Assembly (NCBI RefSeq): GCF_041248615.1
Contig: NZ_CP158427.1
Direction: 5' to 3' (one strand)
Origin: Escherichia coli
GTDB lineage: Bacteria > Pseudomonadota > Gammaproteobacteria > Enterobacterales > Enterobacteriaceae
Length of the DNA: 64,000 nt
The position numbers were made by a program. Numbering within the stretch: the stretch's first letter is position 1; every line of letters begins with the position of its first letter. Of this stretch, positions 1 to 12,000 are shown in pieces.

Positions 1-3000
1 GTGGATAAGTCGTCCGGTGAACTGGTGACACTGACACCAAACAATAACAACACCGTACAACCTGTGGCGCTGATGCGTCTGGGCGTTTTTGTACCGACCC
101 TTAAATCACTGAAGAACAGTAAAAAAAATACACTGTCACGTACTGATGCCACGGAAGAGCTGACACGTCTTTCCCTGGCCCGTGCTGAGGGATTCGATAA
201 GGTTGAGATCACCGGCCCCCGCCTGGATATGGATAACGATTTCAAGACCTGGGTGGGGATCATTCATTCCTTTGCCCGCCACAACGTGATTGGTGACAAA
301 GTTGAACTGCCTTTTGTTGAGTTTGCAAAACTGTGTGGTATACCTTCAAGCCAGTCATCCCGCAGGCTGCGTGAGCGCATCAGCCCTTCCCTGAAGCGCA
401 TTGCCGGTACCGTGATCTCGTTTTCCCGTACCGATGAGAAGCACACCCGGGAATACATCACCCATCTGGTACAGTCAGCCTACTACGATACTGAGCGGGA
501 TATTGTTCAGTTACAGGCCGATCCCCGCCTGTTTGAACTGTACCAGTTTGACAGAAAAGTCCTTCTCCAGCTTAAGGCGATTAATGCCCTGAAGCGACGG
601 GAGTCCGCCCAGGCACTCTACACCTTTATAGAGAGCCTGCCCCGGGATCCGGCACCGATATCGCTGGCGCGGCTGCGTGCACGCCTCAATCTGAAGTCTC
701 CTGTATTTTCCCAGAACCAGACGGTCAGACGGGCAATGGAGCAGTTGCGCGAGATTGGATATCTTGATTACACGGAGATCCAGCGGGGGCGGACAAAATT
801 CTTCTGTATTCACTACCGGCGTCCCCGGTTAAAAGCGCCGAATGATGAGAGTAAGGAAAATCCGTTGCAACCTTCACCTGCGGAAAAAGTCAGTCCGGAG
901 ATGGCGGAGAAGCTTGCCCTGCTTGAGAAACTGGGCATCACGCTGGATGACCTGGAAAAACTCTTCAAATCCCGCTGAACATAAACTGTAGTCAGTGAAG
1001 AGCGCTCCTTTACTGACTACAGCTTATATTAACCGGTGCAGTGAGTGGTCTGCTCACTGCAGTTTATATTCTGTTTCCTGCAGTGCTGTCTGTAGCTGAG
1101 CTGCCATCTGCCTGTCCCTTACGTAAGTGATCCCGTAACCTGATGCTGAGGCATTGCTCCCTTCATAAAACATGACTTACTCACTACAGCTTATATACAT
1201 GCTCCAGCTTATGTTATGTCTGTTCTGCTGACCACAGCTTATATAAGGAAGCGCGTATGCCGTCACCTCAGGGGAGGCAGTGTACGCAGGATCTCCGCAG
1301 CATCCCGCCCGTCACCGGTGAAAGGCACTGCCAGCGTGGCAGCCATATCCAGTGCAAACACTCTGGTATAAACCTCCATCGAACGTGGATCCCTGTGACC
1401 AGCCAGTGCCTGGATGACTTTCCGGGGCTGGCGGTGATAGAGCATGTGCATGATATAGCTGTGCCGGAAGGTGTGTGGTGTGACCGGAATCGAAAAGTGT
1501 ACTCCGTCAGCTTCGGCCCGTCTGACAGCCTGCTTCAGCCAGTTGCGCATGGTTTCGTCGGTCACGGCCCATAATGGTTCACGACGACGGGGCCGGGTGG
1601 TGATCATCCAGCTTTCCATCTGCCTGACATAGCTTATATCTGTCAGCGGAACCAGGCGCACTTCATCTTTTGGCGGGCGTCCGCGTCGCGCACGCACTTT
1701 TTCGGACAGGATCCGCACAAACGGTCTTACTCCATTCAGGTCAAATGATTCCGGCGTCAGCATCCGGGCTTCGCCAATACGCATTCCGGTATTCCAGAGG
1801 GTGGCGAACAGCATATGGTGACGCTGATCCGGCATATAGAAAAGAAGGGCACTCACTTCCGGGGCCAGCAGGTAGGCCGGTGTGGCCCCCGTGGAAGTGG
1901 CCATTCTTCTCAGGGAGAGCGCTGTTGCAAAATCCACCCCCGGCGCAATGGGTAACAGGGAGACGCGTTCTGGTGAATTCTGCAGGGGAATGACATTGTT
2001 CATGAGTTATTTTTCACGTAGCACACGCACTGTTTATGGATACAGGTATTCTGACCTGAACGCCCGGATCCTTCCACGACAATAAATCGCAGCGCGCGGA
2101 TCCTTTTGTTTGATTATCACGCATTATTGCGGGTAAAACCAAATACGTAAAGGCGCATTTTGCCGCTGGGATCCCGTCTTAAGCCAGTCATGGTGCGGGC
2201 TGAGGGCTGGTTTACCGTTTTTGGGAGAATTGGGGTAATGCCAGGAACAGGCAGATACGGAGAAAAATCCTGCAGATAACCTTCTACGACAACTGAAGGT
2301 GTCTGACGCCATATCCTTAGCTACTTCTCAGTTTTAAGGCGGCTTAGTCACAACATAAGGTTATGCATAATAAGCATATTTTATTATGTTATGGTCTTGT
2401 TCATGCATGAACTGTTATCTATTCAGTCACTTTTAACGTTTTTATCATACTGCATATGACACAATCATCTTCTATATTCAGATTAAAGATATTATGACGA
2501 CGATCAAATAAATTTAGTGAAATTGTTACTTACAATAATATGTTTATGACATAATTTATCAAAAATATCCGACAACCTTCCTGAAAGGTTACTGCGAGGA
2601 GTCAAACAATGAAGTGTAATAACTTATTCAGTCTTTTTTATGCTCTCTTTATAGCAAAATCAGGAAGTTAAAATGAATCAGAAGTGGAAGACGCTAATAG
2701 TTTCAGTATTAACACCATCAAGTATTATATCAGGAATTGCGTTGATAGTTCTCTGGGGATATTTCAATCGTCTGGACCGACTGGATATTTTCTTTGATGT
2801 GATGAATATTAAAAGCATCTTGGTATTGGTTTGTTGTGCAACTATTCTATCATTGATTATAATTATGATTATTTTTTTTATAACATCTTTTTTTATACCA
2901 ATAGTTATTCCTTATGATATAAATAACCTTCCTGCTTACAATAAGATTCAGGGTAATTTTTTATCTGTAATGATGTTATCTGGCCTCTTCCCCATGGCCT

Positions 3001-9000: not shown

Positions 9001-12000
9001 TCGTACTCGCCAGCAAAAATCCGTCTGACCTCCCAGGGTTCAAACTGAAACAACTGTTCTCCCATACGTGGATGAGTTAACAGAATGACCGGTGCCTGTG
9101 TCAGGGATTGCACCGTTCTGGCGGCCGCAGGTTTACTGGCCAGCACCAGAAAATCATATAACCGCGCCAAATCAGAAAGCGCCTTACTGGTCCACTTCAG
9201 TTCCATCAGCGTGGCACCGGTAACGGATTGTCAGTACTGAGGCTGTCCGCCCAGGCCTGTACAGCCTGATGGTCGATAACCTGTCCGGATGTCACATCGT
9301 CCAGGGCTTCCAGCGTCAGGCGATTACGCTCCTCCTCCTGGGCAAGCCATGCAGAAAGCGCCTGTTTGATAACCCAGCCCCGGGAGCGTTCCAGCCTGGC
9401 GGCCATCTGGTCGACTTTATCAGCCATAGGTAATGGCACATGCGCGGTAATGACTTTTGTTGCTTGTGCACTATTGTTTTTCATTTGCATATCCGATTAG
9501 TTGTTAATCATATTTAATCATAGTGATTACTTTCAGACGGAACAAGGCAAATAATGCGCGTCAGCGCATGTAAGGCGGCACGCTGTGGTTACATGTGATA
9601 CCGGAGTAAAACCGCCGAAGCCCGGCGTAAGCCGGTACGGATTGATAGATTTCACCTTGCCCATTCCCAGCCCTGCCAGACCATACCCGCTTTCAGCCAT
9701 GAGATAGCTTTTGTGCGCGGTCGGAGTGGTCCTGACGAGGGTTTACCCGAAGTCGGGGCGTATCTCCGCGTTAGCGGGCCGTCAGGGCCGCTTACGAGCG
9801 TGTATTCAGGGGTCAGCTTGGAATTCGGAAATTTTCCCACGCTAAGAGAATTGAGTTGAAAGGATGGTTACATCTAGGCCAGCTAACTCACTGAATGTAA
9901 ATGCTGTACGAAATATTCTGACCGTTCGATAATCGTTTGGCTTACTTCCGTACATTCCCTTGCACAGATGTACAGAATTGTACGAGTTCGGACACCAAAA
10001 CCGCTGTTGTCCCGCCATTCTGGCGATTCCTGAAAGTCATTTGACTAAAAAATAGGGGCTATTTCGAATTTTCTGGACACTCCTGACGCGGAGTCTGTGA
10101 CTTCAACCTGACACCTTACGCTCTTAGCGTACGATTTTTTCCGTTTCGTGAGTTGACCCCTTTATTTTCCAAATTCCAAACTGCCCCCTACATTTATACA
10201 ATGTCCGGCAGGGCATAGAAGGGGAGAAAGAAAATACCTAGGCGAAGCCGCTGAACATCATTCTGGCGATTTCAATAAAGGCATTTGCTCGCGCTCTGTC
10301 ATTATGATGATAAATACGATTTTAACGCCAGCACTCACCGTGGCGTCATCGGAGAGTCGCACACAAGGCTCGGGGCGATGTGTTCTGGTAAAGAGTACCA
10401 GATACTGCTTCCTGGTGAAATTCACATTAAAGAAAGTGGTAAGCGATAATATAAGGGCCGGGATTCCGGCCTTTTTATGCAGCCTTTATAACAGTGTATT
10501 AGTCATTCGCATATTCAACATATCCCTCCTCACAATGGTACATGCCATAATACATTCTCTTACCCTCCGGACCTTCAGCTTTAAATGGGACAAGAAGTGT
10601 TTTTTCATCTTCAACATCTGTTAAACTTCTTTCAATCTTTTCCCATGTAATTTTCGGGATTTCTGTACCAAGAAGTTGTACATCGTTGTCCCAGCGTTTC
10701 ATTCTTTGCAGGTAATCATTTTTTACAAACGTTCTGGCCTGTTCATCGCTGACCTGATAGCATGCCGGAGCTTTATCTTTAGACCAGAAAAAAACAGCAG
10801 TAAGAGCAATAATCGTTAAAATAAAAATAAATTTCATGCTAATTACTTTCATAAAATCTCCACAACTTCTGTCGTCCATTCAATATAAAAAAACATTACG
10901 AATATATCCGTACAATGTGAGCATACTGTGAAGTGGCTTTAACAATTATGAAATAATACAAGAGATCACATATTGCAGTGGTCTCTTTTTTATAGAAGAA
11001 ATCACAATTCATAATTGTGATTTATTATGCATGTCTGTTTTTCAGCATTGTGACCGCATCGGACTCAGGCATCAAAAACTGCACCCGGTGCCGTGCAGCC
11101 ACATCCAGCGCAAACACCTTCGTATAGACCTCCGTTGAGCTGATGGACTTATGCCCCATCAGGCTCTGCAGGACCTTCAGCGGTATACCGGCATACAGCA
11201 TGTGCATCGCATAGGAATGGCGGAACGTATGTGGCGTGACCGGGACAGAGAACGTCACACCATCAGCGGCAGCGGCGGCAACCGCCTCCCCAATCCAGGT
11301 CCTGACCGTTCTGTCCGTCACTTCCCAGATCCGCGCTTTCTCTGTCCTGCCTGTTCGTTTATTACGCCGTTCCATGGGGATTTTCAGTGTGGCCACCATC
11401 ATCTGCACCTGGCTGACGTACCAGGCGTCGGAGAGCGGAACCAGCCGGTGAGTCTGCTGACCGGCGGGCATTCTTCCTGCCGTCCTGGCGGCTTTTTCTG
11501 TCCGCTGCTTCAGAGTGGCCAGCTGCACAAACGGATACGGAGGCGCAAGCGAAAAATCCCCCCGCGTCAGCGCCAGTGCTTCATTAATGCGCGCACCGGT
11601 GTTCCACAGTGTGGCCAGCAGCATCTTGCGGCGCAGATCCGGGACGTAATGGAGCAGGGCGCTCACTTCAGGGGCCAGCAGGTAGGCCGTTGTGCCCCCC
11701 GTGGAGGTGGCCATTCTTCTCAGGGAGAGTGCTGTTGCAAAATCCACCCCCGGCGCAATGGGTAACAGGGAGACGCGTTCTGGTGAATTCTGCAGGGGAA
11801 TGACATTGTTCATGAGTTATTTTTCACGTAGCACACGCACTGTTTATGGCTACAGGTGGTTTTGCTGCTTTTGGGAGAAATGGGGTAATAATGCTAGGTG
11901 GCACCGAAGCGGGGGGGTGAATGTAAAGCTCTTTCGTACTGTGCATCGCATTGTACTCATCATTGAGTAAGTGCTAAACCATGTTAATAGGTGATACTCT

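Follow-up and report, generated by a model that had tools for sequence, protein, structure and literature searches.

The window analyzed here, a stretch of 64,000 nucleotides, is the reverse complement of part of plasmid p14408_1 from Escherichia coli NRZ14408 (NZ_LT599826.1; typed IncFIA/FIB/FIC) and encodes two small tyrosine recombinases, int1 and int2, that share their 5' ends. Two paralogous genes of this class had been called in an earlier note on this DNA, and both open reading frames (ORFs) are indeed present on the minus strand, with products that match the Pfam profile Phage_integrase (PF00589), int1 with E = 2e-14 over residues 51-216 and int2 with E = 2.5e-17 over residues 45-233. 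The catalytic motifs TGARINE, HTFRHSY, GH and EVYT of int2 align with those of XerD (1a0p, 5dcf) and of a XerC-like recombinase (4a8e), the aligned catalytic residues being the box I arginine, the His-x-x-Arg pair, the histidine and the tyrosine nucleophile; a pairwise alignment with int2 identifies the equivalent motifs TGMRIGE, HTFRHSY, GH and EVYT in int1. The two proteins are 58% identical overall and belong to a family of small plasmid tyrosine recombinases that includes ResD, the F-plasmid multimer resolvase acting at the rfsF site (PMC4398462, PMC5065971). The gene contexts are distinct: int1 lies directly downstream of the RepFIB replication initiator gene repA, on the opposite strand, whereas int2 adjoins cmi, the colicin M immunity gene, and has no replicon adjacent. 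The repA gene anchors int1 to the IncFIB backbone, and the IncFIB plasmids examined, out of at least 5000 matching records, have the same repA-int1 order; in the typical IncFIB plasmid pSCU-313-1, int1, repA and the leader are 98.9% identical to those of the window. With the same position, allele family and 240-bp leader, int1 is the ordinary recombinase of the RepFIB backbone.

An ungapped comparison of the two loci reveals a shared block of 196 bp (1852-2047 versus 11662-11857) at a fixed offset of 9810 bp; the copies have the same orientation, i.e., they are direct repeats, as the earlier note held. That note had also described ~190 bp of identical DNA. Precise alignment bears out the length of the shared stretch, and "identical" proves slightly overstated: the block contains six mismatches (1860, 1880, 1885, 1896, 1920 and 2040), which corresponds to 96.9% identity, and is perfect only over a core of 119 bp (1921-2039). 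A perfect match of 119 bp cannot be attributed to chance in 64 kb. Beyond the block, the ungapped identity falls to ~70% over the next 100 bp and then to ~20-50%. According to a multi-sequence alignment, the true shared origin within the block is confined to codons 1-43, given that codons 44-50 are alike in all relatives.

Two independent paralogs with shared 5' ends, as previously supposed, are not what the comparison with other members of the family points to. In its body, int2 shows 95-98% DNA identity to the ResD-type genes that F, ColBM and IncK plasmids carry, e.g., 97.8% to an integrase gene of IncK and 95% to the gene that follows ccdAB in the F-like plasmid pEc673-2; such identity to genes located elsewhere rules out tandem duplication followed by divergence. 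A megablast search started with the int2 locus retrieves at least 5000 plasmid records, and nearly all of the ResD-type matches listed end at 11681-11684; only 17 records among these matches continue through the 5' end of int2. Native relatives were compared from four settings, namely, beside the colicin B/M genes, in an IncK plasmid, in a ColV-type plasmid and downstream of ccdAB in an F-like plasmid. Their bodies are nearly identical to that of int2, but their N-termini are unrelated (MSGSVIHS..., MQHLPSPIHH..., MSGPQLLS...), each overlapping the upstream gene, whereas the N-terminus of int2 is as in int1 and the native operon context of ResD-type genes (after ccdB, orf137 or orf229) is lacking. 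In a nucleotide alignment of nine loci, int2 is int1-type from the leader to 11685 and ResD-type from 11670 on. The identity between the two gene types at this crossover, 14 nt or, more broadly, 27 of 29 nt, is the sole sizeable one near the 5' ends and is located at the start of the catalytic domain. Because the Pfam match of int2 begins at residue 45, the swap exchanges a short stretch at the N-terminus and does not touch the catalytic domain. These observations fit best with the conclusion, which we consider highly probable, that int2 is an in-frame chimera of the 5' end of a RepFIB-type int and a ResD-type body, and that the repeat is a scar of plasmid mosaicism by which an adhesin operon was carried along, with no new mobile element. 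A crossover within the 14 identical nucleotides would have joined the two paralogs in a homology-driven event between two plasmids.

Table 1. Features of the two recombinase loci and of the DNA around them (positions are those of the window)
Feature	Position	Strand	Basis or remark
RepFIB replication initiator gene repA	1..978	+	ORF; annotated in the source record as RepB family initiator
int1, RepFIB-linked tyrosine recombinase, 246 aa, intact standard allele	1263..2003	-	ORF and Pfam
Shared block, copy 1: ~50 codons of int1 and 44-nt proximal leader	1852..2047	-	Ungapped comparison
Leader segment present upstream of int1 only, deleted upstream of int2	2048..2210	-	Alignments
Motif copy 1, TGGCATTACCCCAATTCTCCCAAAA, distal end of the int1 leader	2219..2243 (2219-2239 as TGGCATTACCCCAWTTCTCCCAAA)	-	Motif search
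IncFIB backbone cargo with insertions	2244..9808		ORFs and annotation
AT-rich gene for a membrane protein, 389 aa	2673-3842		
Group II intron reverse transcriptase remnant	~4461-5570		
IS3 element	5577-6790		
Short-chain dehydrogenase/reductase (SDR) fragment	6905-7423		
Alpha/beta hydrolase gene	7434-8399		
Direct repeat of 115 bp flanking ParE/RHH	8475..8589 and 10189-10303	+ (first copy)	97% identity
ParE	8931-9206		
Ribbon-helix-helix (RHH) antitoxin	9206-9490		
Module: cmi, chimeric int2, truncated leader and afa-type chaperone-usher adhesin operon	9765..18675		98.7% to pEC16-3
int2, 262 aa	11025..11813	-	ORF and Pfam
int2, ResD-type part: codon 48 to stop, catalytic domain	11025..11670	-	DNA identity to ResD-type genes
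Crossover interval, 14 nt (TACCTGCTGGCCCC, codons 44-48, YLLAP)	11671..11684	-	Same in int1-type and ResD-type genes
int2, int1-derived part: codons 1-43 and 44-nt proximal leader	11685..11857	-	173 nt; comparison with int alleles
Motif copy 2, ATTACCCCATTTCTCCCAAAA	11869..11889	-	Direct orientation, 9650 bp from copy 1
Leader A: DNA upstream of int2 into the PapB-like regulator gene (12556-12846, +) of the afa-type operon	11890..12846		

The reciprocal product, a ResD-type 5' end joined to an int1 body, was sought with a synthetic junction query among 72,556 plasmids, and no record covered 80% or more of the query. The int2 junction itself is present in 16 of 5426 complete E. coli genomes, mostly on plasmids of ~105-120 kb and often from poultry. 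A second chimera composed of an int1 5' end and a ResD-type body is found in three Swiss plasmids of Shiga toxin-producing E. coli, where it adjoins the ehx (enterohemolysin) operon in an F-type context (e.g., positions 5576-6389 of locus L020, NZ_CP075854.1). This gene contains an internal stop, and its int1-type single nucleotide polymorphisms (SNPs) are like those of the resident allele. Both the SNP pattern and the upstream break differ from those of int2, the crossover falling in the same interval of 14-20 nt, and the ehx-linked chimera apparently originated independently of int2. Recurrence of the crossover at codons 44-48 is expected if the exchange is homology-driven, since no longer stretch of identity exists near the 5' ends. 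Genes of this family that are annotated as "site-specific integrase" can be hybrids without a promoter region and site of their own.

The DNA upstream of int2 is informative with regard to the origin of its 5' end. Leader A (at least 80% of 11700-12560) is present in 26 plasmids, in most of them behind the same chimera. In four plasmids examined (pF344-1, p1517k, pSBF22a and the plasmid of E. coli a15), it is found directly behind a full int1-type gene, which is preceded by RepFIB repA in three of the four (pF344-1, pSBF22a and the a15 plasmid); in p1517k, IS1 occupies this place. The body of the int allele in this afa-linked RepFIB lineage is 88-91% identical to int1 of the window, and pSBF22a and the window share 98% identity over the afa region. 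The identity between the int gene of this lineage and int1 of the window declines gradually across the crossover, which argues that the full-length gene is a parent rather than a product of the chimera. Over the 173-nt block, int2 shows three differences (two in one case) from the afa-linked lineage versus five from the resident int1. The afa-type operon includes a gene for the AfaD invasin, and three AT-rich tandem repeats of 33 nt (12217-12321) are located upstream of its PapB-like regulator gene.

A different explanation for the shared block is recent local gene conversion, whereby the resident paralogs, which reside on one replicon in direct orientation, exchanged sequence and homogenized their 5' ends; 97% identity with a perfect run of 119 bp between genes whose products are only 58% identical is what such an event would leave behind. 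However, the chimeras on pEc673-2 (IncFIA/FIC) and pEC16-3 (IncK) lack a neighbouring int1 and yet contain the same 173-nt block with only one or two differences, so that the likeness to int1 was inherited rather than converted within p14408_1. Furthermore, the int1-type sequence runs on upstream for ~700 bp that are absent at the resident int1 and present at other RepFIB-int loci, to which the block is also slightly nearer than to the resident gene. Local conversion, very unlikely on all these counts, was ruled out by the occurrence of the block on plasmids without int1 beside the chimera.

The chimera would be accounted for by the following course of events. The int2 body would come from a ResD-type gene whose normal place is next to the colicin B/M genes or behind either ccdAB or a small upstream ORF; the first 43 codons, the 44-nt proximal leader and the DNA further upstream would come from a RepFIB int locus of another lineage, with an afa-type operon directly upstream; and the crossover would have moved this adhesin operon into the ColBM/ResD setting. 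The module of cmi, int2 and the afa-type operon is shared with the IncK plasmid pEC16-3 (L008) over 8913 bp and also occurs in pEc673-2 (IncFIA/FIC) and one chromosome. Comparison of these loci shows that the module then spread to IncK, IncFIA/FIC and IncFIB plasmids. In p14408_1, the module is situated 9.8 kb from the resident int1, so that the int1-type 5' end inherited by int2 shows up as a direct repeat. The cmi gene (10499-10852) occurs in the window with neither the colicin M gene nor the colicin B genes and represents a remnant of a ColBM module. If this reconstruction is correct, the route of an adhesin operon can be followed base by base, out of an IncFIB replicon, onto a colicin-immunity/ResD remnant and into IncK and IncF plasmids of E. 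coli from poultry and humans, with a crossover inside two related recombinase genes, rather than a transposon, as the vehicle.

The two leaders differ in extent: int1 has a complete, conserved leader of ~240 bp that ends in the motif TGGCATTACCCCAWTTCTCCCAAA, and int2 only the proximal 44 nt and the motif. The earlier note had taken the extra DNA for an insertion of ~180 bp in copy 1. The difference in length is real and amounts to 163 bp; given that these 163 bp are conserved in the int1 loci compared from E. coli, E. albertii, Klebsiella and Citrobacter, it is rather a deletion of ~160 bp upstream of int2. The int1-only segment contains a promoter-like sequence, TTTACG-17-AATAAT (2123-2151), the sole sigma-70-like match in the leader, a palindrome CCCGCAATAATGCG(G/T)G and three (2066, 2098 and 2169) of the eight GGATCC sequences of the window. 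An annotated "hypothetical protein" of 62 aa (2124-2312) overlaps this part of the leader and may be a spurious call. With the deletion, int2 would have lost the conserved promoter-like and operator-like region.

The pattern of conservation also bears on the possibility that the shared block is held similar by selection on a DNA element that both genes need, be it an operator, a recombination site or a translation signal. Among int1 alleles, the first ~120 nt (leader and 5' coding sequence) are 97-98% identical compared to ~88% in the central part, as such selection would predict. The 3' end of int1 is, however, equally conserved (95-98%), so that the pattern is mosaic rather than specific for the 5' end, and this equal conservation rules out a DNA-level function as the reason for which the 5' block was kept. 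Given, in addition, that native ResD-type genes in many plasmids compared do without the block altogether and that the most conserved leader elements are those deleted upstream of int2, selection of this kind is extremely improbable.

With int2 seen as a chimera, its present state can be considered. A run of G at 11695-11700 (sense strand) consists of six residues in int2 of the window and of five in the copies on the IncK plasmid pEC16-3 and in the chromosome of MS 119-7, which amounts to a frameshift. Frameshifted copies on an IncK plasmid and in one chromosome suggest that int2 is probably a decaying relic, of uncertain expression and with no cognate site. An rfsF-like core, GGAAGATCCG-N14-CGGATCTTCC, was deduced from comparative breakpoints upstream of ResD-type operons, and rfsF-like core or hybrid sites were located in L005 (~5544-5577), L009 (5153-5186), L008 (15544-15579) and L012 (2357-2391). 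The hybrid sites, which have a different left half, GGTC(T)GATCC(A/G)ACTT(C)A, are found in pEC16-3 where the afa module ends on its far side, exactly at the rfsF crossover point, and ~990 bp upstream of RepFIB repA in L012. The rfs-type half-site of L012 was set aside, being outside the conserved RepFIB region and absent from the plasmid of the window. An rfsF-like inverted repeat was also sought in the int1 leader, which contains three GGATCC motifs and no complete core, and no third recombinase of the int1/int2 family was detected in ~130 kb of p14408_1.

Several points count against this reconstruction or limit its reach. An identity of 14 nt is short for RecA-mediated exchange, and the join may have come about through RecA, template switching or another route. 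The direction of the event follows from parsimony, and the 5' end could stem from an ancestor not seen among the sequences. SNPs lend the donor lineage little support (three versus five differences in 173 nt), and the contiguous upstream DNA is the main argument. The int2 ORF is intact in p14408_1 and in at least three other plasmids, for which the description as a decaying relic may be wrong. The search for an rfsF-like site, negative in the window and 66 kb more of p14408_1 (~130 kb; BLAST with the conserved region of 230-260 bp, and core patterns), left out ~6.7 kb of the record. Finally, no experimental description of the RepFIB-associated int was found in the literature searched, and literature searches on the function of RepFIB int and on a link between afa-8 and an integrase returned nothing specific.

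The DNA between the two genes had been regarded as an accessory segment bracketed by the repeats and captured, or deletable, by homologous recombination. Its contents are as described previously (the AT-rich membrane gene, the intron remnant, IS3, the hydrolase and ParE), the orphan colicin M immunity gene being an addition. Of the proposed origin, a homology-driven event is retained for the shared 5' end; the 9.8 kb are not a captured unit. Positions 1-2245, 2220-3857 and 8555-9808 are collinear with typical IncFIB plasmids, 3857-8475 (the intron remnant, IS3, the SDR fragment and the hydrolase) is an insertion that is absent from the typical IncFIB plasmids compared, and most of the bracketed DNA adjoins int1 in other IncFIB plasmids (L002, L014 and L015). 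Judging from these alignments, the 9.8 kb between the repeats is mostly normal IncFIB backbone with insertions. The IS3-family element interrupts reverse transcriptase fragments (the 4461-7423 region) and abuts a 5'-truncated SDR oxidoreductase gene. Both copies of the 115-bp repeat around ParE/RHH map to one contiguous stretch in the ColV plasmid L013, which points to a second seam between related plasmid segments. In pS1380-135kb (ColV/ColBM), int1 and a native ResD-type gene are located in the same orientation ~7 kb apart; since ColV/ColBM plasmids hold both recombinases, the layout with two recombinases is familiar as a backbone pattern, and the second gene is unusual here in its 5' end only. 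An assembly error is unlikely to have produced the arrangement of the window, given the overlap with independent plasmids: ~1-5560 is covered by two records at 98.9% identity, and pLWY6J-2 extends from the reverse transcriptase fragment to past 12500 at 99.7%.

The motif of ~24 bp at the distal end of the int1 leader deserves separate consideration. In the window, TGGCATTACCCCAWTTCTCCCAAA has two matches versus 0 expected by chance. The homology among plasmids of E. coli, Salmonella, E. fergusonii, Klebsiella, Citrobacter and Enterobacter ends at the motif (query positions 296-298), conservation stops there in an alignment of seven leaders, and at least four different, unrelated contexts abut it. 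Typical IncFIB plasmids of the L002 type have two copies that flank 774 bp, and the site of the window is the exact recombinant of this pair. The 774-bp segment contains an ORF of 60 aa (L002, 2735-2917), which we take to resemble a truncated antitoxin of the ParD type. A genome-wide scan for the motif returned seven stretches, of which three are unrelated (~4 were estimated by chance) and four are of the int1-leader type, in Klebsiella, Citrobacter braakii (two copies, one contig) and two contigs of contaminated metagenome-assembled genomes. The pattern resembles what has been described for rfsF in IncI1 and IncR plasmids, and the motif is a candidate for a crossover site of Int1. Counting against such a role, it is a tandem 9-mer with no inverted repeat, and slippage between short repeats could explain the 774-bp case.

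On these grounds, the bracketed 9.65-9.8 kb could be viewed as a site-specific cassette (attL-cargo-int-attR), with Int1 or int2 recombining the copies of the motif or the shared leader. The two direct copies, the sharp limit of the conserved leader across plasmids of these six taxa, the variety of abutting contexts and the L002-type pair with its recombinant in the window all speak for this possibility, as does the switching of modules that has been reported at the analogous site rfsF of IncI1 and IncR plasmids (PMC8004404, PMC9412624). Nevertheless, on its left the segment consists of ordinary backbone, which other IncFIB plasmids also have beside int1, the second motif arrived with the afa module, and no empty-site or excised form with the alleles of the window is found in the 5426 genomes; moreover, the motif is unlike the rfsF core in being a tandem 9-mer and not an inverted repeat, and the duplication or deletion of the L002 type can also be explained by slippage. 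The cassette interpretation is, accordingly, quite improbable. The shuffling driven by a recombinase that the earlier note envisaged gains indirect support from the motif at the distal end of the int1 leader, where the adjoining cargo varies among plasmids, and thus from another place than the one proposed.

Deletion between the repeats, also raised previously, is feasible: the 196-bp repeat (dependent on RecA) or the two ~24-bp motifs (possibly dependent on Int1) could delete 9.7-9.8 kb and leave a repA-int1-afa arrangement. A recent product of this kind, sought in the 5426 genomes with a synthetic query that joins the int1 allele of the window to leader A, was not seen; the only matches, at 92.8-93.8%, represent the divergent donor lineage. 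Given this junction identity and an int body identity of 88-91%, the look-alike repA-int-afa loci belong to the donor lineage and are not descendants of a deletion.

A broader and more speculative reading, which we consider doubtful, is that the RepFIB recombinase might be a cargo-docking enzyme that acts at the ~24-bp motif and not only, or not at all, a dimer resolvase. Modules would then be swapped among IncFIB plasmids of several genera, the 9.65 kb of p14408_1, with the chimeric recombinase gene, would be excisable as a circle, and the YLLAPEV stretch would be a recurrent splice point. If that were the case, adhesin, toxin and other modules would be exchanged at the motif, and splicing of resolvase genes would carry virulence operons between backbones. 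The motif and the leader provide a testable candidate target site and control region for the RepFIB int, a gene carried by thousands of clinical IncFIB plasmids, and of all the results the candidate Int1 site most deserves a test.

Compared with known systems, the chimeric int2 resembles the RepFIB int in its first 43 codons, the proximal leader and the terminal motif, and differs from it in the ResD-type catalytic domain, a leader that is ~160 bp shorter and the lack of an adjacent replicon. With ResD of F, which is encoded in the RepFIA region together with rfsF, oriV1 and ccdAB, int2 shares 95% DNA identity in the body and the catalytic residues; unlike ResD, it has the first 43 residues and the promoter region of a RepFIB recombinase, no ccd/orf137 operon and no rfsF-like site that could be found. 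Rsd/crs is, by description, likewise a tyrosine recombinase of small size whose resolution site lies upstream of its gene, a position reportedly described by Krause and Guiney in 1991. The Rsd/crs system (RsdB) belongs to the virulence plasmids of Salmonella, and RsdB is a putative resolvase (PMC5065971). In IncI1 plasmids (Delta versus Col gene sets) and IncR plasmids, modules are switched at rfsF (PMC8004404, PMC9412624), and there, as in the window, the cargo on one side of a resolvase-associated site varies between plasmids; unlike in those plasmids, however, the junction in the window lies inside the recombinase gene, within coding homology, and not at a recombination site.

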